Shown here in pieces: positions 1,976 to 44,787 of a DNA stretch of 64,000 nt (positions are counted from its first letter, which is position 1; the number at the start of each line of letters is the position of its first letter). The DNA is from Rhodospirillales bacterium (GTDB lineage: Bacteria; Pseudomonadota; Alphaproteobacteria; Bin95), in assembly GCA_038143065.1 (NCBI GenBank), contig JAYQLI010000035.1, positions 1,120,001-1,184,000 on the forward strand. Reading direction: 5' to 3'. The translations under genes were made by a program, and so were the position numbers. Under the pieces are notes generated by a model. That model ran no database searches and was not told the origin of the DNA. It worked only from the letters and a program-made list of their open reading frames with translations.

Positions 1976-3024
1976 GCAACGATATTCTTTTTGAGGAACG
2001 TGGGAAGGTTGGGCTAATTACGTTGAACCGCCCGAAGGCTTTGAATGCAATTAGTGTTGAAATGGTGCGGGCAATGACCCTTGCGCTCGACCAATGGGCT
2101 GCCAGTGAAACAATAAGAGCCGTTATAATTTTAGGAGCTGGCGGCAGAGCATTTGCAGCAGGCGGCGACATACAAAGACTTTATGAGTTCATGTCGGCAA
2201 AAGATATGTCATACCCGATCGAATTTTTTGCTGAAGAATATCGACTTAACCAAAAAATCAAGCGTTTTCCCAAACCTTATATATCAATTTACAATGGGAT
2301 CGTTATGGGCGGTGGGGTCGGCGTGTCCGTGCATGGATCCTGCAGAATAGCCACAGATGCAACAATATTAGCAATGCCCGAGACCGGGATAGGTTTCTTT
2401 CCAGACGTCGGGGGTACGTATTTTATGCCCAGACTTAATGGAGGCTTGGGCAACTACATGGCACTTACAGGGGCACGACTGGATGGTGGAGACTGCGTTA
2501 CCGAAGGTTTAGCTGATCATTATATAAAGGTAGGTGAGATTGACTCGCTAATTTACGCTTTAGTGGATAGCGATAATATCGGAGCAACCATAAAGGAAAT
2601 GTCTGTTCATCCCCCTATTGGTAAACATGCAACAATTCGAAACGAAATCAGAAGCTGCTTCAATCATTCATCGATTGAAGAAGTAATCAGATCTTTAGAA
2701 AAAAATGATACCGAATGGGCAAATAGTCAGCTCAACACAATCCGGCAAAAATCCCCGCTCTCTGTAGCCGTTACTTGGGAGCAATTACGACGAGGGGCCA
2801 CACTGGATTTTGAACAATGCCTTCAACTTGAATACAGGATTGCTCTCGCTAGCTGCCAAACTGGTGAATTCAGAGAAGGAGTAAGAGCTCTTCTCATTGA
2901 CAAAGACAACAAACCTCAATGGAGACACGTCAGAGTTGAGGACGTATCCGAAGAGGAGATACAGGCTCATTTTCAAGAGCCTTCATCAGGTGACATGAAA
3001 TTTAATTTAAATAACGAGATATAA
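1972..3024 (+). CDS. 3-hydroxyisobutyryl-CoA hydrolase (crotonase family)
   Basis: [46 protein letters not shown]; ATGA overlap with the upstream gene. Confidence 0.92.
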
Positions 3025-3040
3025 TACAGGAGTTTTTGTT

Positions 3041-3937
3041 ATGGCTCGAATAGCATTCATCGGCGTTGGGAATATGGGCGGACCGATGTCAATAAACCTT
3101 GCTAAGGCTCAGCATCAGGTTCAGGCCTTTGATCTTTCACCTACGGCACTCAAGGCTGCTGAAGACGGTGGGGCAACAGCAGCAGCTAGCGTAGCAGACG
3201 CTGTAAAAGATGCTGAAATTGTTATTACGATGCTCCCAGCAGGAGCTCATGTCAGAGAAGTTTACACCGGCTCTGGCGGTATATTTGAGAACGCACCAAA
3301 GGGTTGCCTATTTATTGATAGTTCCACTATCGATGTCGCAACTACGCGCGAGATAATTAGCGAAGCAAAGTCCGCTGGATTTGATATGGTTGACGCTCCT
3401 GTATCAGGTGGCACTGGTGGAGCAGCAGCTGGAACATTGACGTTCATGGTAGGTGGAGAGCAAGCCGCATTTGATCGCGGGCAGCCAGCTTTTCAAGCAA
3501 TGGGTAAGACCATAGTGCACTGCGGAGAAGCAGGGGCCGGACAAGCAGTAAAGGCCTGCAACAACATGATGTTAGCAATAACCATGATCGGAGTTGCCGA
3601 AGGCTTCAACCTAGCGGATTCACTCGGCATTGATCGACAAATTGTGTATAATGTTTGCTCTACAGCAACTGCAAATTCTTGGGCGCTTTCGACCTATTGC
3701 CCGGTTCCTGGTCCGGCCCCCAGCTCACCAGCAAACAGAAATTACGAGGCTGGCTTCACTGCAGATATGATGTTAAAGGATCTTCGACTTGCTCAGGATG
3801 CCGCTCAAAAAGCAGGAGTATCGACACCTCTCGGCTCAGAAGCTCAGGCTCTTTACGCGTTATATTCCAACATGGGCGAAGGAGGTAAAGACTTCTCTGG
3901 AATTATACAGATGCTGCGAGGAAAATCTGGCGATTAA
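3041..3937 (+). CDS. mmsB: 3-hydroxyisobutyrate dehydrogenase
   Basis: FIGVGNMGGPM, DAPVSGG, KACNNM, YCPVPG, LKDL; RBS AGGAG upstream. Confidence 0.95.
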   Translation: MARIAFIGVGNMGGPMSINLAKAQHQVQAFDLSPTALKAAEDGGATAAASVADAVKDAEIVITMLPAGAHVREVYTGSGGIFENAPKGCLFIDSSTIDVATTREIISEAKSAGFDMVDAPVSGGTGGAAAGTLTFMVGGEQAAFDRGQPAFQAMGKTIVHCGEAGAGQAVKACNNMMLAITMIGVAEGFNLADSLGIDRQIVYNVCSTATANSWALSTYCPVPGPAPSSPANRNYEAGFTADMMLKDLRLAQDAAQKAGVSTPLGSEAQALYALYSNMGEGGKDFSGIIQMLRGKSGD

Positions 3938-3976
3938 GTTGCAAGATGTGATCACTTAGCGGGCAAATAAACCGTA

Positions 3977-4060
3977 TTCTTCTCCCTTTCAAGCACACTA
4001 AATGATGATGCGTTCTACACAAAACCTCTATCTCTTGAGCGCTTGAAAGGGGAAGAAGAA
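3977..4060. terminator. Long imperfect inverted repeat between convergent genes (terminator or structured RNA)
   Basis: TTCTTCTCCCTTTCAAGC (3977-3994) pairs with GCTTGAAAGGGGAAGAAGAA (4041-4060) around a loop of about 46 nt. Confidence 0.4.
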
Positions 4061-4137
4061 AAGCACCAAACGTAAAACAGCTAGCTAAGTTTGCTGACGC
4101 AGCTCAAGAAAGAGTAATCAGTCATTGCATAAATGTC

Positions 4138-4887
4138 TTAATAATCTTGAAGAAGAGATCCGAACCCATAAACCTTATCATTGATGCCATTCATACGCAG
4201 GGCATGCCAATATGTTACCGTGTTGATTGCTAGGACAGGCTTGTCTAGCCAAAACTCTGCCATTGGTGCGAGTTTAGCAAAACAAAGATTGGTTCCAACT
4301 TGCAATATAGCCTCAACCTGAGAGTCATTCACTCTTTCAACGGCATTACGCAAGGTTTTGGGATCAACATGGGCAATTGAAGTCGGGCTGTCACATTTAA
4401 GACCTTCAACAGCAACTACCTCGAAACCACAGTCAGAGAAGAATTTTGTTACCTCACTATCTCCAATTGGCATGTAGGGGGTAATAACTCCTATTCGAGT
4501 AATATCTCCGAAGCACCTTAATGCAGCTTGACTTGCATCAGAGCCCATAGCTACCGGCAAGCCATTCGCGCGGTCTCCTATTTTTTTCTTAAGCTCGATA
4601 GATCCTTGCAAACCTCCCCAGAATGTTTCTGAAGACATCCCCATAACTATTGCGTTAGGACGTGCGGTCATGACCCTATCAACAGCTTGAAATAGCTCAG
4701 CTCGGATGCGAACCATTAATTCTTCAAAGTCAGCATCAGAAGTAAGACGATCATCCGGAATATGGATACGACTAAAATGATTAGTCACCCCGTAAGGCGC
4801 CATCCAACCAAATTCAGGCTGCACAATCGTATTTGTTGAGGGCGCTATAACGCCAAATTTCATTCGATGGCCAAGAACGTCTGACAT
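4138..4887 (-). CDS. Asp/Glu racemase superfamily protein (maleate isomerase / arylmalonate decarboxylase-like)
   Basis: GVIAPSTNTIVQPE, HFSRI, GVITPY, GTNL, KPVLAIN, GFGSLL; ATG at 4887 with a GAGGA RBS overlapping the parE stop. Confidence 0.8.
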   Translation of the reverse strand: MSDVLGHRMKFGVIAPSTNTIVQPEFGWMAPYGVTNHFSRIHIPDDRLTSDADFEELMVRIRAELFQAVDRVMTARPNAIVMGMSSETFWGGLQGSIELKKKIGDRANGLPVAMGSDASQAALRCFGDITRIGVITPYMPIGDSEVTKFFSDCGFEVVAVEGLKCDSPTSIAHVDPKTLRNAVERVNDSQVEAILQVGTNLCFAKLAPMAEFWLDKPVLAINTVTYWHALRMNGINDKVYGFGSLLQDY

Positions 4888-39989: not shown

Positions 39990-41610
39990 ATGAGTTTGAA
40001 GATCTCAATGCCTCAACCGGATATGGATCTTAAACCTCGCATCACCGTCGTAGGTGTTGGTGGTGCTGGCGGTAATGCGGTCAATAATATGATTCGCTCT
40101 AACCTGTCCGGAGTAGAATTCCTTGTAGCAAACACTGACGCTCAAGCGCTTGAAATGTCGAGCGCAGACCAACGAATTCAACTTGGGCTAAACCTTACTC
40201 ACGGGCTTGGAGCGGGTGCTCGCCCAGAAATAGGCCGAGCTGCGGCGGAAGAAGCTATTGAAGAGATCATGGGGCGATTATCAAAGAGTCACATGGTCTT
40301 CATAACAGCTGGCATGGGTGGAGGAACCGGGACAGGCGCCGCTCCAGTTATAGCTCGTGCCGCACGCGAGTCAGGGGTCTTGACCGTTGGAGTTGTAACA
40401 AAACCCTTCCACTTCGAGGGTGCAAACCGCATGCGCGCGGCGGACAGTGGCATAGAGGAATTAGCCAAGCACGTAGATACGCTAATCATCATCCCAAACC
40501 AAAATTTATTCCGTATTGCCAATGAAAAGACGACCTTTGCAGAAGCCTTCCAGCTTGCAGATGATGTACTCTATTCAGGAGTACGCGGGGTAACAGATCT
40601 GATGGTTATGCCTGGTCTAATCAACCTAGACTTTGCTGACATTCGCACCGTCATGGCAGAAATGGGTAAGGCAATGATGGGTACTGGTGAAGCCGGAGGT
40701 GAGGACCGCGCCCGCCAGGCTGCTGAGGCAGCAATATCCAATCCTCTTCTAGATGAAATATCTATGCAGGGCGCAAGAGGCGTTCTAATAAATATCACTG
40801 GTGGCTCAGACATGACGTTGCTAGAGGTCGATGCGGCAGCAAACCGAATTCGAGAGGAAGTAGACGACGATGCAAACATTATTTTTGGTGCAACAATGGA
40901 CCAAAATCTTGATGGAGCCATGCGTGTTTCAATCGTAGCCACTGGCATCGATACTGTTCCAGGACAAAAGCCCCTTCCGATCGAGCCTTTCACGAGCTCT
41001 GCAGTGGGGAAGTCAGTTGACACAGCGACCGCTCGACAAGCTCCAGCAGTTGCAGCCGCTCTCACGCAAGTTGCGCAAATTGATAGTTCTTCAGAAGCAC
41101 TTAAATCAGTTGATGAGGAAACATCAATTCAGGTTCATCAGAAAGAGGATCTGGTCGAAAGCAACGAAATCGTTACCGAGACTGAAGCAGAGCAAGGCCT
41201 AGATAAACAGCCTGAAAATGAAGCTTCGTCCAACAAGACAACAACTGGACATTTCCTTCTAAGTTAGAGAGTAAATCCAGCTCTGCGCGAGATGACGCTT
41301 TCATACCTGAGGCTGCTGAAACGACTAAATCAGTCGCTTCACCTCAGCCTGAAGCCGAGCCTTCAGCATTATCTGCACCCCCTCGCCCACGTCGCACTTT
41401 CATAAGTATTTTCGACCGTATGACGGGGCTACTCGCCAGCAAGATGTCGATACTATGTCACCTTCTACTGAACCAAAAATAGTAACACCGAGCGCAGAAA
41501 ACCCAACCAAAGACCAAGATCAAGATCAAGATAAAGCAGAAGATAAAAACTCGGCTAAAACAGACGAGTATCTAGATATACCCACATTTCTGCGTCGTCA
41601 GGCAAATTAA
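39990..41610 (+). CDS. ftsZ: Cell division protein FtsZ with long linker; frameshifts near 41250 and 41425
   Basis: [23 protein letters not shown]; downstream frames give [13 protein letters not shown] and the conserved C-terminal peptide [15 protein letters not shown] with stop at 41610. Confidence 0.96.
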
Positions 41611-41702
41611 CTTGTAATTGAGTTCAGTAGATATCAGCTTTCATCAATAATCTGATGTATATATTTAAGGTCTCTTGTTTGGGTAATGGTTCAGGCCTGA
41701 GA

Positions 41703-43110
41703 ATGATGTGTGACCGCAAGAATAAAAATTGGGGAGCAACAAAAAAGTTGCCCTCCCTAAAACCAGTTTTGACCATAGCTTTTGGACTCTTCCTCTTTGC
41801 TTGCGCGGGAAAAAACTGAAAGTTACGAAGAGAAATCTGTCGACTCACTATATAATGAGGCGATGGATTCCGTTCTGGATGGAAATTATCTCCAAGCTGC
41901 CAATCAATTTTTTGAAGTAGAGCGTCAGCATCCTTATTCAGTATGGGCAGCTAAGTCGCAGGTAATGGGAGCGTATGCGTATTTTCGCTTGGATCGCTAC
42001 GACGATACAATCAATGCCGCCGATCGATTTATTCAGTTACACCCATCAAATCCGGATGCTCCATACGCCTTTTATTTGAGGTCATTGGCGTACTATGAGC
42101 AAATAGTTGATATTTCCAGAGACCAGGGCGTGACACAGCAAGCCTTGCAGGCTTTAGAAGATGTCATTCGACGATACCCAGATTCAAAATACGCTCGCGA
42201 TGCTGCACTTAAGCTCGATCTAACCCGCGACCATCTAGCGGGCAAAGAAATGTCTGTGGGGCGTTTTTATTTGAAAAAGGGAGAGTTAGCTGCCGCAATT
42301 AATCGTTTTAAGCGTGTTGTGGAACAATACCAGACAACTAGCCATGTGCCGGAAGCTCTTCTTAGAATGGCAGAATGCTACTCTGCTCTTGGTGTTAAAG
42401 ATGAAGCAAAACGAGTAGTTGCAATCTTAGGATATAATTTTCCTGGAAGCTCTTGGTATGCAGACGCTTATAGGTTGATAGAAAATCTAGACAATGATGG
42501 ATTCATAAGCTCAGACGCCCGTCCTTTCTACAAAAGGTGGCTGAATCCAGAACCAAAAATTGCTAAGGCTGAGAGACGTAAATTAAAGGGTTTAGTGGGA
42601 ATTGATCCTGCCATTGATGATAAAAATACTTCAAACTCCTCAGCCCAAGAAGCAAGCGCCAGCTTAAACGCAGATTATCTCCGACCATGGAGACGCTCGG
42701 AATTAAGTGAAAGTGAGCGAAAAAAATTTATCATTGAAGCAAAAAATCAAGAAGAGATATCTCGAAACTCTGCAAAAGAATGGCGACTAGCAGCAGACAA
42801 TGCGGGTTCAAAGAAAGGTCGCAGTCGCGCCTCTGCCAATGCAAACTTAGCAGAAATAACTGCAGAGGTTTGGTCTGCTCGCGTTAAAATTGTTAGCGCC
42901 AGCTCACCCGATGACATCCTAAATGCAGAGGTACTCCATGCGGAAACATCTGTTTCTTATTGGGAGGCAGTTTTAGAGACAACGGAGGACGATCTTGCTC
43001 GAGATCATGCAAAGTCTGCGTTGTCCGAGGCACAAATGCTGCTCGACCACTGGAAAGCAAAAGGCCAAAGGCCCAGTTGGTTGGATCGTATGATAAACTC
43101 GGTACTGTAA
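41703..43110 (+). CDS. bamD: Outer membrane assembly lipoprotein BamD with a C-terminal extension of about 205 aa; extra A near 41812
   Basis: Upstream frame gives a signal peptide ending LFLFAC (lipobox, Cys at 41802). Core motifs VERQHPYS.WA, RFIQLHP, RDQ, HLAGKEM.VGRFY, AAINRF, LGYNFP.S.WY. Confidence 0.92.
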
Positions 43111-43121
43111 ATAAACACGCA

Positions 43122-44787
43122 ATGCTCACCGCGCTCTCGATCCGCAATTTAGTTATTATCGAGGCACTAGACCTCTCGTTTGGCGCTGGTCTTAACACCC
43201 TCACCGGTGAGACTGGAGCAGGAAAATCTATCTTACTCGACGCACTTGGACTTGCACTTGGTGCGAGAGCTGAAGTGGGCTTAGTGTCAACTGAATCCAA
43301 ACAAGCAAGTGTCACGGCTCAATGTGAACTTTCGGACACACATCCAGTCTGGTCATATCTAGCTGAAGCTGGAGCTGGGTCTGATGAACAAGATCTCCTT
43401 TTGCTTAGGAGAGTTCTGAACAGCGATGGCCGCAGCCGTGCATTTATTAACGATATCCCTGTTTCGATTGGCTTGCTTCGACAAACAGGGAAAATGATTT
43501 CAGAAATCCATGGCCAGTTCGAGCAATATGAACTCCTGGATCCCAATCAGCATCGTGAATTTTTAGATGTTTCAGGTAATTTAGAAGAAAATTTAAAAAG
43601 CCTGAACTCTTTATGGTCGTCTTGGCATGAGGCGGAACGCAAATTCACAGAAGCCTCAACGCATGTTGCATCTATGCAGCAAGATGAAGCTTTTCTGAGG
43701 ACTCTATAGAAGAATTATTAGAGCTATCGCCAGAAGAGGATGAGGAAACCCAACTTGCAACTCGCCGGGCTTTTTGGCCAATCGCGCCCGGATCTCAGAA
43801 GCGCTAATAACTGCTATGCAGTCTCTTGAAAATTCAGGCGCTGCGACTGCAATACGACAAAGCGAACGGTCACTAGCAAGGTTAGCTGATGCCGCTGAAG
43901 GCAATTTTGATAATGCTATATCAGCACTTGAACGTGCCGGAATTGAACTTGCTGAAGCTGAGCAGGCTCTATCGGCCTCGATGGCAAGCCTTGATGCAGA
44001 TACAGACACATTGGAATTTGTTGAAACAAGATTAATTGCGCTTAGACGTGTAGCACGTAAGCATCATACCCAACCCAATGAATTACCAAGTTTATTAATT
44101 AAACTGCGGAATGATTTTGAGTTATTAGAGCATAAAGAAGACGAGCTATCTGATCTGAGAGAAGAGGTTAATCTAGCTCGGTCTAAATATGTATCAGCAG
44201 CGGAAGATATTTCGAAAAAAAGATTGGTTGCTGCTCGTAAATTAGAACAAGCCATACACAAAGAACTTCCCCCGTTAAAGTTGGAAAGTGCTGAAATTAA
44301 GATTGAGAACAATCAACTTGAGGAAGTTAACTGGGGACCAAACGGGATCGACAAAGTCCGCTTTATGGCGCGAGCCAATCCAGGGCATCCATTCGGAGAA
44401 ATGCATAAAGTTGCCTCTGGGGGTGAGCTCGCACGTTTTGCTCTTGCTCTTAAAGTAGTGTTATCAAATCGCAGTTTTGCTTCTACGTTAATTTTCGATG
44501 AAGTTGATGCTGGGATAGGAGGTGCAACAGCAGATGCTGTTGGTAAACGATTGAAGAGATTGTCCAGTCGAGTCCAGACACTAGTGATAACCCATTCACC
44601 GCAAGTTGCCGCCTTAGGAGAGCACCACTATCAAGTTCAAAAAAAGGTTGAGAACGGAATAACCCGCACCACTGTCACTAAGTTGAAAGACGAGGCTAGA
44701 CGTGAAGAGATTGCACGGATGCTTTCCGGAAGTTTAATTACTGAAGAAGCTCGCGCTCAAGCTGAGCGGTTAATCGATAGTGCATAA
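43122..44787 (+). CDS. recN: DNA repair protein RecN; frameshifts near 43700 and 43772
   Basis: TGETGAGKS, EIHGQ, ASGGELAR, FDEVDAG, ITHSPQVAA, EIARML. Confidence 0.94.

Follow-up and report, generated by a model that had tools for sequence, protein, structure and literature searches.

A four-helix C-terminal domain appended to BamD in two genera of one alphaproteobacterial order

The bamD gene in the window (a stretch of 64,000 nucleotides from a Rhodospirillales bacterium, assembly GCA_038143065.1, here G000; contig JAYQLI010000035.1, positions 1,120,001 to 1,184,000 of the forward strand) encodes a BamD with a C-terminal module composed of a predicted disordered tether of about 66 residues, a four-helix domain, and an amphipathic tail motif. 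Every genome that has the module has a single copy of it, always on BamD, and all such genomes belong to two of the three genera of one alphaproteobacterial order; the domain is previously undescribed and belongs to no known family. Two BAM subunits are essential and universally conserved; BamD is one of them, and it is generally regarded as having a fixed architecture. We assign a probability of roughly 0.6 to the reading that this protein is a genuine BamD lipoprotein with a lineage-restricted C-terminal module whose helical domain serves as a flexible periplasmic arm of BAM.

Results

The bamD frame stays open beyond the TPR core

The BamD ORF occupies 41782..43110 on the forward strand (442 residues, counted as a 443-residue frame across genomes) in the gene order ftsZ-bamD-recN-ligA. 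Residues 17-211 belong to the YfiO/BamD family PF13525 (score 181.7 bits with a family cut-off of 25, E 1.9e-53), and BamD chains were the best PDB sequence matches (E 1.8e-44). The TPR core, delimited by PF13525, the PDB matches, and the full-length AlphaFold2 model, spans 41809..42477 and ends in ...GYNFPGSSWYADAYRL. From there the frame continues for about 205-210 codons, in agreement with the roughly 205 codons claimed by the sequence-only reading (a reading of the letters and their open frames without database searches), and the same extension recurs in 17 of 37 genomes. The extension, all on the forward strand, consists of a low-complexity linker (ORF residues 237-302, 42490..42687), four 30-residue repeat units that each have a Trp as the last residue, and a C-terminal tail (43066..43107) ending in ...GQRPSWLDRMINSVL. 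Unit 1 (ORF residues 305-334, 42694..42783) carries the motif S-R-x5-W and ends at W334, and it is followed by unit 2 (335-364, 42784..42873, W364), unit 3 (365-394, 42874..42963, W394), and unit 4 (395-424, 42964..43053, W424). The TAA stop codon lies at 43108..43110, and recN starts 11 nt further on, at 43122.

Between 42480 and 43110, contigs of three DNA runs and one RNA run from four studies contained no frame-breaking indel; the sole indel among them, seen in a single contig, adds an in-frame AAA after 42665. The metagenomic protein P0002 is collinear with the window, ungapped from LIENLD to an identical C-terminus. Continuity across 42480-42700, which had been marked for checking when only the letters were available, is confirmed by these comparisons. 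Contigs of the RNA-library run (X15) cover the whole stretch, which is weak evidence because DNA can occur in RNA libraries.

The lipoprotein signal peptide (MMCDRKNKNWGATKKLPSLKPVLTIAFGLFLFAC-AG; 41703..41808, forward strand, with the lipobox Cys at 41802-41804) was located from the ORF 41655..41819 and a three-frame translation. In the window's assembly a 2-bp deletion separates this signal peptide from mature BamD, so that the two are read in different frames. All four runs carry GA inserted after 41808, which joins the signal-peptide frame to the BamD frame, and in the relatives a signal peptide with a lipobox is in frame with the BamD core. Both observations indicate that the lipoprotein signal peptide is probably in frame in the species, although it is out of frame in the assembly as written. 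This assembly has apparent frameshifts in several conserved genes (among them the bamD signal peptide, ftsZ, recN, and bamA), and with frame-breaking indels in such genes, pseudogene calls taken from its annotation are not trustworthy.

The extension is predicted to fold as a four-helix domain on a disordered linker

AlphaFold2 modeled the isolated C-domain with a pLDDT of 89.1 and a pTM of 0.80 as an all-alpha fold without strands, with helices at model residues 15-45, 49-77, 81-105, and 109-133, the first of which (unit 1) has a pLDDT of 90-98. In ORF numbering these are residues 310-340 (42709..42801), 344-372 (42811..42897), 376-400 (42907..42981), and 404-428 (42991..43065). We conclude from the models that the domain is predicted to be compact and all-alpha, about 125 residues long, with four helices of 25-31 residues, one for each unit of about 30 residues. 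The Trp residues lie within 9-49 degrees of the hydrophobic face in helices 1-4; each is at or close to that face of its helix, and the four most likely cap the helix packing. In the full-length model the core helices extend over residues 11-225 (pLDDT of 10-residue blocks mostly 80-90, range 66-91), the linker (model residues 228-293) has a pLDDT below 50, and the domain has one of 84-91. A single complex prediction of the C-domain against the BamD core, run without controls, scored 0.00 and speaks neither for nor against binding.

The linker, assigned from its low pLDDT, raised dN/dS, and variability among relatives, differs in both length and sequence from genome to genome: it has 66 residues here, roughly 90-120 in other g1 members (we designate the three genera g1, g2, and g3), and about 60 in g2, where the length was taken from the regions used for dN/dS. 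Its composition in the GC-rich relatives is Pro-, Ala-, and Glu-rich.

At the other end of the domain, the terminal amphipathic helix (ORF residues 433-441, 43078..43104; mean hydrophobic moment 1.70) is free in the models, and the tail has a low pLDDT (44-68). We found that the tails of seven non-extended alphaproteobacterial BamDs read SW[LI]S[RK].W.SV[FL] and variants, and the extended BamD also finishes with this motif (SWLxR...SVL), placed about as far from the C-terminus as in the short BamDs, 9-10 residues from the end as in four of those seven. Within the tail, L139 and R141 are invariant in the alignment; the tail-motif Trp is lost in one g1 genome, G007. Sequence comparison revealed a second copy of the motif at the canonical position after the core in g2 and g3, and this copy is degenerate in g1 (RPFYKRWLNPEP, inside the linker around 42514-42560 on the forward strand).

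The units are related by duplication, with an exact period in one genus

In-frame TGG codons fall at 42688, 42781, 42871, 42961, 43051, and 43078 (spacings of 31, 30, 30, 30, and 9 residues), so that those at 42781, 42871, 42961, and 43051 are exactly 90 nt apart, as had been noticed. With seven Trp in 206 residues, the chance of three consecutive equal gaps is P = 0.00135. In the autocorrelation of the extension the best lag was 30, reached by 0 of 1000 shuffles at lag 30 and by 13 of 1000 at any lag. Once Trp was masked, another lag ranked first in this single-sequence analysis; thus the period of the single sequence is carried mostly by Trp.

Profile comparisons with hhalign, which like the fold tests rest on nine sequences from one lineage, gave scores of 26.1 for units 2 and 3, 27.6 for units 2 and 4, and 19.6 for units 3 and 4, with unit 2 aligned in register with units 3 and 4; column-shuffled controls had a mean of about 7.5 (sd about 2), and none of 60 reached any of these three scores. 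When the [Y]W columns were removed, units 2 and 4 (19.2) and units 2 and 3 (13.3) still scored above all 40 shuffles, and units 3 and 4 no longer separated from them (4/40). The similarity of unit 1 to the other units is weak, its three scores being reached by 2, 7, and 5 of 60 shuffles. Hairpin 1 against hairpin 2 scored 33.7, compared to 9.0 ± 1.4 for shuffled profiles (0/40), and the motif A-[EQRS]-x5-W is present in all four units of all nine aligned sequences. Together, the profiles support an origin of the units by real duplication, with two duplicated helical hairpins. Derivation of the repeats from BamD's own TPR core was considered and rejected (hhalign probability of 0.75% against a 19-sequence core alignment).

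Thirty-residue Trp-anchored repeats had been described from the letters of this gene. Their periodicity holds in autocorrelation and hhalign; their exactness does not extend beyond g1, where the Trp spacing is 30/30/30, because g2 has 30/35/30 or 31/39/30 with an insertion of 5 or 9 residues in unit 3, and the fifth Trp (42688) is not conserved among the relatives. The broader claim, that a diverged helical repeat domain has been grafted onto BamD, is borne out by the AlphaFold2 fold, the hhalign units, and the 17 of 37 genomes that share it.

The domain is restricted to BamD of two genera and is conserved

A C-domain profile found matches in 17 of the order's 37 genomes (g1 7/10, g2 10/10, g3 0/17), the check among relatives that the sequence-only reading had proposed. 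There was one match per genome, always within a BamD frame of 443-631 residues (443 in G000, 506-631 in the others). Three g1 MAGs (G004, G005, and G008; 87, 90, and 96% complete) yielded no BamD, which we take as assembly gaps and not as loss; the g1 count is therefore incomplete. The host lineage is free-living, marine and estuarine, and g2 includes at least one complete single-contig assembly (G014).

Among 1.84 billion (1.84e9) representative proteins, only nine matched at E≤1e-3; both full-length matches were BamD, and the other seven were fragments or miscalled ORFs. No stand-alone copy of the domain was found in any genome searched or among these representatives. A Pfam scan of the last 206 residues of the ORF matched zero families, no TPR family matched ORF residues 237-442 at E≤1, and searches of the extension against Pfam, PDB sequences, and fold databases returned nothing specific, neither a described family nor a solved fold, in keeping with the original remark that the repeat family was not recognizable. 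A search of the ESM Atlas with the domain gave no usable match.

We compared dN/dS within close g1 pairs, dS being saturated in most pairs. L003/L006 gave 0.027 for the core, 0.21 for the linker, and 0.026 for the C-domain, and L003/L004 gave 0.017 for the core and 0.041 for the C-domain. These ratios indicate that the C-domain is under purifying selection in close relatives. The 33 SNPs listed in the gene (besides 102 further differences) include 8 non-synonymous and 4 synonymous changes in the C-domain, versus 1 and 16 in the core. P0002 differs from the window at eight positions in units 1-2, which suggests loose constraint on the first hairpin in this species. Within the extension, conservation is highest in the second hairpin and the tail.

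Other BAM subunits are retained, and skp is missing where the domain is present

We found BamE in all 31 genomes, with and without the extension, BamF/DUF3035 in 29 of 31 (all 19 of the family included), and a BamB-like protein in 29 of 31, G000 among them. BamA of G000 (G000:C35:2803799-2806224) has five POTRA stretches and an Omp85 barrel, in two frames in the assembly. Because BamB, BamE, and BamF occur whether or not a genome has the extension, the domain is no replacement for an accessory lipoprotein, and the suggestion that it stands in for one was rejected.

Skp acts upstream of BAM as a periplasmic chaperone. Skp/OmpH (PF03938), scored above the family cut-off, was found in 0 of 10 g1, 0 of 10 g2, and 17 of 17 g3 genomes, in 12 of 12 other families of a first sample, and in 275 of 301 genomes of a class sample (at least 95% complete), so that its absence is uncommon in the class. 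In the g3 genome G011 the gene order is rseP-bamA-skp-fabZ-lpxA-lpxI, and in G000 and all five further g1/g2 genomes examined fabZ directly follows bamA. Gene order thus indicates a deletion of skp in g1 and g2 from its usual site between bamA and fabZ. Weak OmpH matches in g2 (E 0.001-0.07) were considered as divergent Skp and rejected; the four that we read are other helical proteins (ATP-synthase-b-like twice, DUF883-like, and a coiled-coil protein). The other main OMP chaperone, SurA, is present in 31 of 31 genomes.

Homology of the domain to Skp was rejected: hhalign gave a probability of 0.04% against 13 Skp sequences of relatives, and hmmscan of all nine extension members produced no PF03938 match at E≤1. 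No Skp was among the matches listed in fold searches with the domain, a result still compatible with a likeness of hairpins. The net charge of the domain is 0 to -9 (mostly acidic), and that of the relatives' Skp is -5 to +7 (11/13 positive). A general rule by which Skp loss leads to a longer BamD also fails, since BamD tails have only 0-34 residues in all ten other Skp-less alphaproteobacterial genomes compared (14 further Skp-less genomes of the class sample lie outside this comparison). With ordinary BamD in those ten lineages, the domain and the Skp loss amount to one or two evolutionary events; a tree of the BamD core (19 rows, tail and extension columns excluded) leaves g1, g2, and g3 unresolved, and for both reasons the complementary pattern may be coincidence. 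The earlier suggestion of a chaperone role accordingly gains circumstantial support, Skp/OmpH being not found in exactly the two domain-bearing genera, and we treat this coincidence as a lead, not proof.

Discussion

We favor a model in which the outer-membrane-anchored BamD would hold the helical domain near BamA, where the domain may bind a periplasmic partner or client. Most plausibly, it would bind outer-membrane proteins that are still unfolded, as substrates, or a factor involved in their delivery. The domain would supplement a complete BamA/B/D/E/F set and replace no subunit, possibly acting as a holdase on a tethered periplasmic arm of BAM.

A more specific proposal is that a BAM-tethered holdase domain took over the job of Skp, which made skp dispensable and led to its deletion. 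We regard this as possible, with the odds clearly against it. The absence of Skp from exactly g1 and g2, the uncommonness of such absence in the class, the bamA-fabZ adjacency, the identity of the weak g2 matches as other helical proteins, and the universal presence of SurA all fit, as does the construction of the domain from long helical hairpins, like the arms of Skp. Weighing against it are the small number of events (at most two) and the tree without resolution, the lack of homology, the acidic domain compared to the mostly basic Skp of relatives, and a fold predicted as a closed bundle and not a cavity-forming trimer; moreover, the short tails of the ten other Skp-less genomes imply that Skp loss does not require the domain. 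Alternatively, the domain could cross the peptidoglycan and dock on the cell wall or an inner-membrane partner (e.g., Sec), coupling BAM to other layers. A small, compact domain on a disordered linker of 66 residues, longer in other g1 members, makes such a span physically possible, and the free terminal helix of low pLDDT is consistent with it, but a linker length that varies about two- to three-fold among relatives speaks against a measured span, the extension has neither a peptidoglycan-binding motif nor a Pfam match, and the ftsZ-bamD-recN-ligA neighborhood suggests no partner, which together make this reading unlikely.

Retention of the canonical tail motif at the extreme C-terminus raises the question of whether the tail is the functional element, with the bundle, as a product of insertion or duplication between core and tail, serving only to space it or to cluster BAM complexes through self-association of BamD. 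The second motif copy after the core in g2 and g3, degenerate in g1, and the strong conservation of the second hairpin and tail would follow naturally; conservation of the whole bundle (dN/dS 0.026-0.041 in close g1 pairs) and loss of the tail Trp in G007 would not, and we think this explanation quite unlikely. Finally, the frameshifts of G000 in the bamD signal peptide, ftsZ, recN, and bamA could suggest an artefact, whether a sequencing frameshift or lost stop that fused BamD to a separate gene downstream, or a tail of untranslated junk. Such an origin is very improbable given a frame that is continuous in 16 other genomes and in contigs of four independent runs, a confident fold, a domain apparently under purifying selection, and no stand-alone copy in any genome searched. 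The reading that we prefer is that of a BamD lipoprotein with a tethered periplasmic arm.

These findings describe the addition to BamD of an entire folded domain that belongs to no known family and has been kept under selection. The 30-residue helical repeat of this domain looks de novo, and its derivation through duplication of a hairpin is traceable. The coincident loss of skp yields a testable hypothesis on the rewiring of chaperone delivery to BAM; if substitution for Skp were true, this would be the first OMP chaperone function built into the assembly machinery itself, and the clean loss of skp from between bamA and fabZ would be explained. The protein is a clean natural example of domain accretion on BAM whether or not its link to Skp is a coincidence.

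The extended protein shares with canonical BamD (YfiO/ComL, PF13525; PDB 5waq and 5d0o chain D) a TPR core, bamA/B/E/F in the genome, and a signal peptide with a lipobox Cys, which is in frame in relatives and in other assemblies of this species. It differs from canonical BamD, whose solved chains have 218-341 residues, by about 205 additional residues that comprise the disordered linker, the Trp-repeat domain of four helices, and a second tail. A figure legend of Anwari et al. 2012 (PMC3359395) mentions an alphaproteobacterial BamD "60 residue C-terminal extension ... not shown." Those extensions also follow the TPR region, but they are short and, in that account, uncharacterized. Our full-text literature search returned no description of a folded C-terminal BamD domain, although the supplementary alignments of PMC3359395 might contain extensions of this kind. 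In BamD of the sister genus g3, 82-95 residues follow the WY motif, and about 55-65 of these lie past the tail motif, but this extension is a charged helix with a Pro-rich end, and the C-domain profile matches it in 0 of 17 genomes.

Skp/OmpH (PF03938) is likewise periplasmic and largely helical-hairpin in build, and skp is missing exactly where the domain is present; Skp, however, is free and trimeric with a beta-strand body, whereas the domain is predicted to lack such a body, differs in net charge, and forms part of the BamD chain as a covalent tethered arm. TPR and Sel1-like repeats resemble the extension in their tandem helix-turn units with small residues at packing positions, but they have a period of 34 or more and a helix pair per unit, compared to a period of 30 and a single helix here, and the extension has no Sel1 or TPR Pfam match. 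Outer-membrane lipoproteins of the LpoB type have a small globular domain that a long disordered linker joins to the outer-membrane anchor and that could reach other envelope layers; in the extended BamD the effector domain is unrelated, and the arm is attached to a folded, essential subunit of BAM.

Continuous reading frame of the BamD extension

The BamD ORF (41782..43110, + strand) encodes 442 residues and lies downstream of ftsZ; recN starts 11 nt 3' of its stop and is followed by ligA. Residues 17-211 match Pfam YfiO/BamD (PF13525, E 1.9e-53), and the last 206 residues gave no Pfam match. When we re-read the frame, the coordinates, repeat units and terminal peptide described from the sequence alone were all correct, with in-frame TGG codons at 42688, 42781, 42871, 42961, 43051 and 43078. 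Over 41600-43200 we compared contigs of four runs, each from a different study; three runs were of DNA and one was of an RNA library. Between 42480 and 43110, no frame-breaking indel occurs in the contigs of any of the four runs, and the core-to-extension junction is fully bridged by contigs. The sole indel there, in one contig of run X9 (depth 11.6 of 33.6), adds AAA in frame after 42665, a variant that fits a linker tolerant of length change. In addition, an independent metagenomic protein of 211 aa (P0002) aligns without gaps, though with 21 substitutions, from LIENLD... as far as the C-terminus of the window's BamD. Because the run contigs carry no breaking indel and P0002 is collinear, the frame continues from core to extension as proposed, with no early stop that would make the extension a separate gene. 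Runs containing the stretch come from estuary, marine, salt-marsh and biofilm metagenomes.

Upstream, in the window's own assembly (G000), the signal peptide of the lipoprotein (...LFLFAC-AG, Cys at 41802) and the mature protein do not share a frame. All four runs have two extra bases, GA, after 41808, and frame arithmetic indicates that this insertion brings the signal peptide into frame with BamD; in G000 these bases are missing, through an assembly error or a mutation in the strain. At 41689, G000 has 2 extra bases relative to the contigs of three of the four runs. Several other genes appear split: ftsZ (39990-41610), with a 425-aa ORF at 39990..41267 that lacks the conserved C-terminal peptide and that peptide in another frame at 41455..41610; recN (43122..43709 and 43774..44787); bamA (G000:C35:2803799-2806224; 2300-4725 of the extracted locus L048), as frames of 670 and 145 aa; and a luciferase-like monooxygenase gene downstream of bamA (L048 8454-9409). 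Together with the signal peptide, these breaks suggest that indel errors are frequent in G000.

Repeat structure and predicted fold

After its linker and ahead of the C-terminal tail, the extension holds a helical domain (the C-domain) of four units, each ending in Trp. In the single sequence, autocorrelation was best at a lag of 30 (reached by 0/1000 shuffles at that lag and 13/1000 at any lag), a signal that was lost when Trp was masked. Profiles from nine homologues aligned units 2, 3 and 4 in register (hhalign 19.6-27.6, column shuffles 7.5 ± 2, 0/60 each), and hairpin 1 (units 1 and 2) aligned with hairpin 2 (units 3 and 4) at 33.7 across 47 columns (shuffles 9.0 ± 1.4). With the aromatic-Trp columns removed, units 2 versus 4 and 2 versus 3 still exceeded all 40 shuffles, which units 3 versus 4 did not. 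These profiles strengthen the case for old, diverged helical repeats; for unit 1, the comparison with the other units was not significant against column shuffles. The motif A-[EQRS]-x5-W occurs in all four units of 9/9 aligned sequences. The exact 30/30/30 Trp spacing holds in the window's genus (g1) but is interrupted in a second genus (g2), where the turn of unit 3 has gained 5 or 9 residues, and the fifth Trp (42688), which had been read as part of the pattern, is not conserved. We conclude from these comparisons that the units represent a real and old duplication, of a helix unit into a hairpin and of the hairpin into two. Derivation from the protein's own TPR core was rejected (profile comparison probability 0.75%).

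AlphaFold2 on the nine-sequence alignment predicted helices at 15-45, 49-77, 81-105 and 109-133 (domain numbering) and a short terminal helix at 138-146, with pLDDT 89.1 and pTM 0.80. The Trp residue lies 9-49 degrees from the hydrophobic face in each helix, and the Trp residues probably sit at the two ends of the packed helices. In the full-length model, the same four helices reached pLDDT 84-91, the TPR core mostly 80-90 (10-residue blocks, range 66-91), and a 66-residue linker fell below 50; the overall pTM of 0.45 is in keeping with two independent domains joined by a tether.

For the locus pair L003/L006, dN/dS was 0.21 in the linker, which evolves fastest, 0.027 in the core and 0.026 in the C-domain; for L003/L004, it was 0.017 in the core and 0.041 in the C-domain, dS being saturated in more distant pairs. 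The population SNPs listed (8 non-synonymous to 4 synonymous in the C-domain, 1 to 16 in the core) argue against uniform constraint. P0002 and the window's domain differ in units 1-2, with a single substitution elsewhere, and the second hairpin with the tail is the better conserved half.

In seven short BamDs of Alphaproteobacteria, the chain finishes about 30 residues past WYxDSY with SW[LI]S[RK].W.SV[FL] or a variant, and extended BamDs also close with this motif, placed about equally far from the C-terminus (SWLDRMINSVL, TWLERTVRSLS, GWLSRLFGGS). A second copy at the canonical post-core place is kept in g2 and in the third genus of the order (g3) and is degenerate in g1. The linker and bundle formally lie between the two copies, which suggests that a duplication of the 3' end played a part in their origin, the motif being too short for a statistical test. 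Beyond the motif, BamD of g3 (L011, L044, L046, L047) carries a different, shorter extension, a charged helix (...ERAEELAKALAEERAAEDKDLMERARR...) and a Pro-rich end, unrelated to the Trp-repeat domain.

Distribution of the C-domain

We searched the window's order (one family, three genera, 37 genomes) with the C-domain profile. Exactly one match was found per positive genome: 7/10 in g1 (G000 included), 10/10 in g2 and 0/17 in g3, so the extension does recur in relatives. All matches sit in frames that also hold a BamD core (443 aa in G000, 506-631 aa elsewhere); the three unmatched g1 genomes, MAGs 87-96% complete, also gave no BamD match. Among 1.84 billion representative proteins there were 9 matches at E<=1e-3, of which the two full-length ones (525 and 503 aa) are both BamD, and the remainder are fragments or miscalled ORFs, one reading on into recN and another whose N-terminus is unrelated. 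In the metagenomic protein P0007 (167 aa), an N-terminus resembling a membrane-fusion (HlyD-type) protein precedes the last one and a half units and the tail; the join, at a short shared helix sequence, probably reflects chimeric assembly.

Consistent with the failure to recognise the repeat from the sequence alone, Pfam, PDB sequences and the ESM Atlas gave no family, match or lead for the C-domain. Short C-terminal extensions of alphaproteobacterial BamD are already in print in a figure legend (PMC3359395), and a full-text literature search, supplements aside, found no paper that describes a folded domain at the C-terminus of BamD. This is a known protein with a domain of an undescribed family, confined to two genera.

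BAM partners and chaperones

All 31 genomes searched have BamE. BamF (as DUF3035, the family named for BamF by Anwari et al. 2012, PMC3359395) was found in 29/31, among them every one of the family's 19, and a BamB-like protein in 29/31. None is missing from G000, which speaks against the earlier proposal that the domain stands in for an accessory Bam lipoprotein. In g1 BamF (G000:C35:1907147-1907647 and relatives; frames of 228-263 aa, 480 aa in G004), the DUF3035 model matched in two pieces (~2-80 and 59-140), suggesting an insertion mid-BamF.

SurA was found in 31/31 genomes. At the family cut-off, Skp/OmpH was found in neither g1 (0/10) nor g2 (0/10), and it was present in g3 (17/17) and in each of the 12 other families of the first sample; weak OmpH-like matches in g2 were rejected as other helical proteins on inspection of four of them. 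Across the class, Skp was present in 275/301 genomes at least 95% complete, the only count that G066 and G223, flagged unpublished, enter. The g3 gene order is rseP-bamA-skp-fabZ-lpxA-lpxI (genome G011, L049); fabZ directly follows bamA, with no skp, in G000 (L048 4288-5185) and five further g1/g2 genomes (L051-L055), 6/6. In G000, lpxA and lpxI no longer lie behind fabZ.

Discussion

The C-domain exists, folds and is maintained. BamD, anchored in the outer membrane, carries this small four-helix module on a flexible tether, and we propose that the module binds a periplasmic partner or client near BamA, a function that would come on top of a full set of BAM subunits. Both the binding and the nature of its target are inferred. 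Set beside the continuous frame in four runs, an artefact is highly improbable. The tether might be meant for reach, carrying the C-domain to the wall or inner membrane, which we consider unlikely; that the bundle is a spacer or self-association module, with the tail as its centre, seems a little harder still to credit.

A tentative possibility is that the C-domain took over the role of Skp, as a BAM-tethered holdase. Skp and the C-domain are perfectly complementary across the genera of the order, skp is cleanly deleted from its usual place, few of the sampled genomes of the class lack Skp (26/301), and the C-domain is hairpin-rich, periplasmic and BAM-proximal. However, the BamD-core tree leaves g1, g2 and g3 unsplit, so Skp loss and domain gain may be two coincident events on a single branch, and BamD tails are ordinary (0-34 residues) in 10/10 other Skp-less alphaproteobacteria examined. 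Compared with Skp itself, the C-domain has no homology to it and a net charge opposite in tendency, both of which count against substitution.
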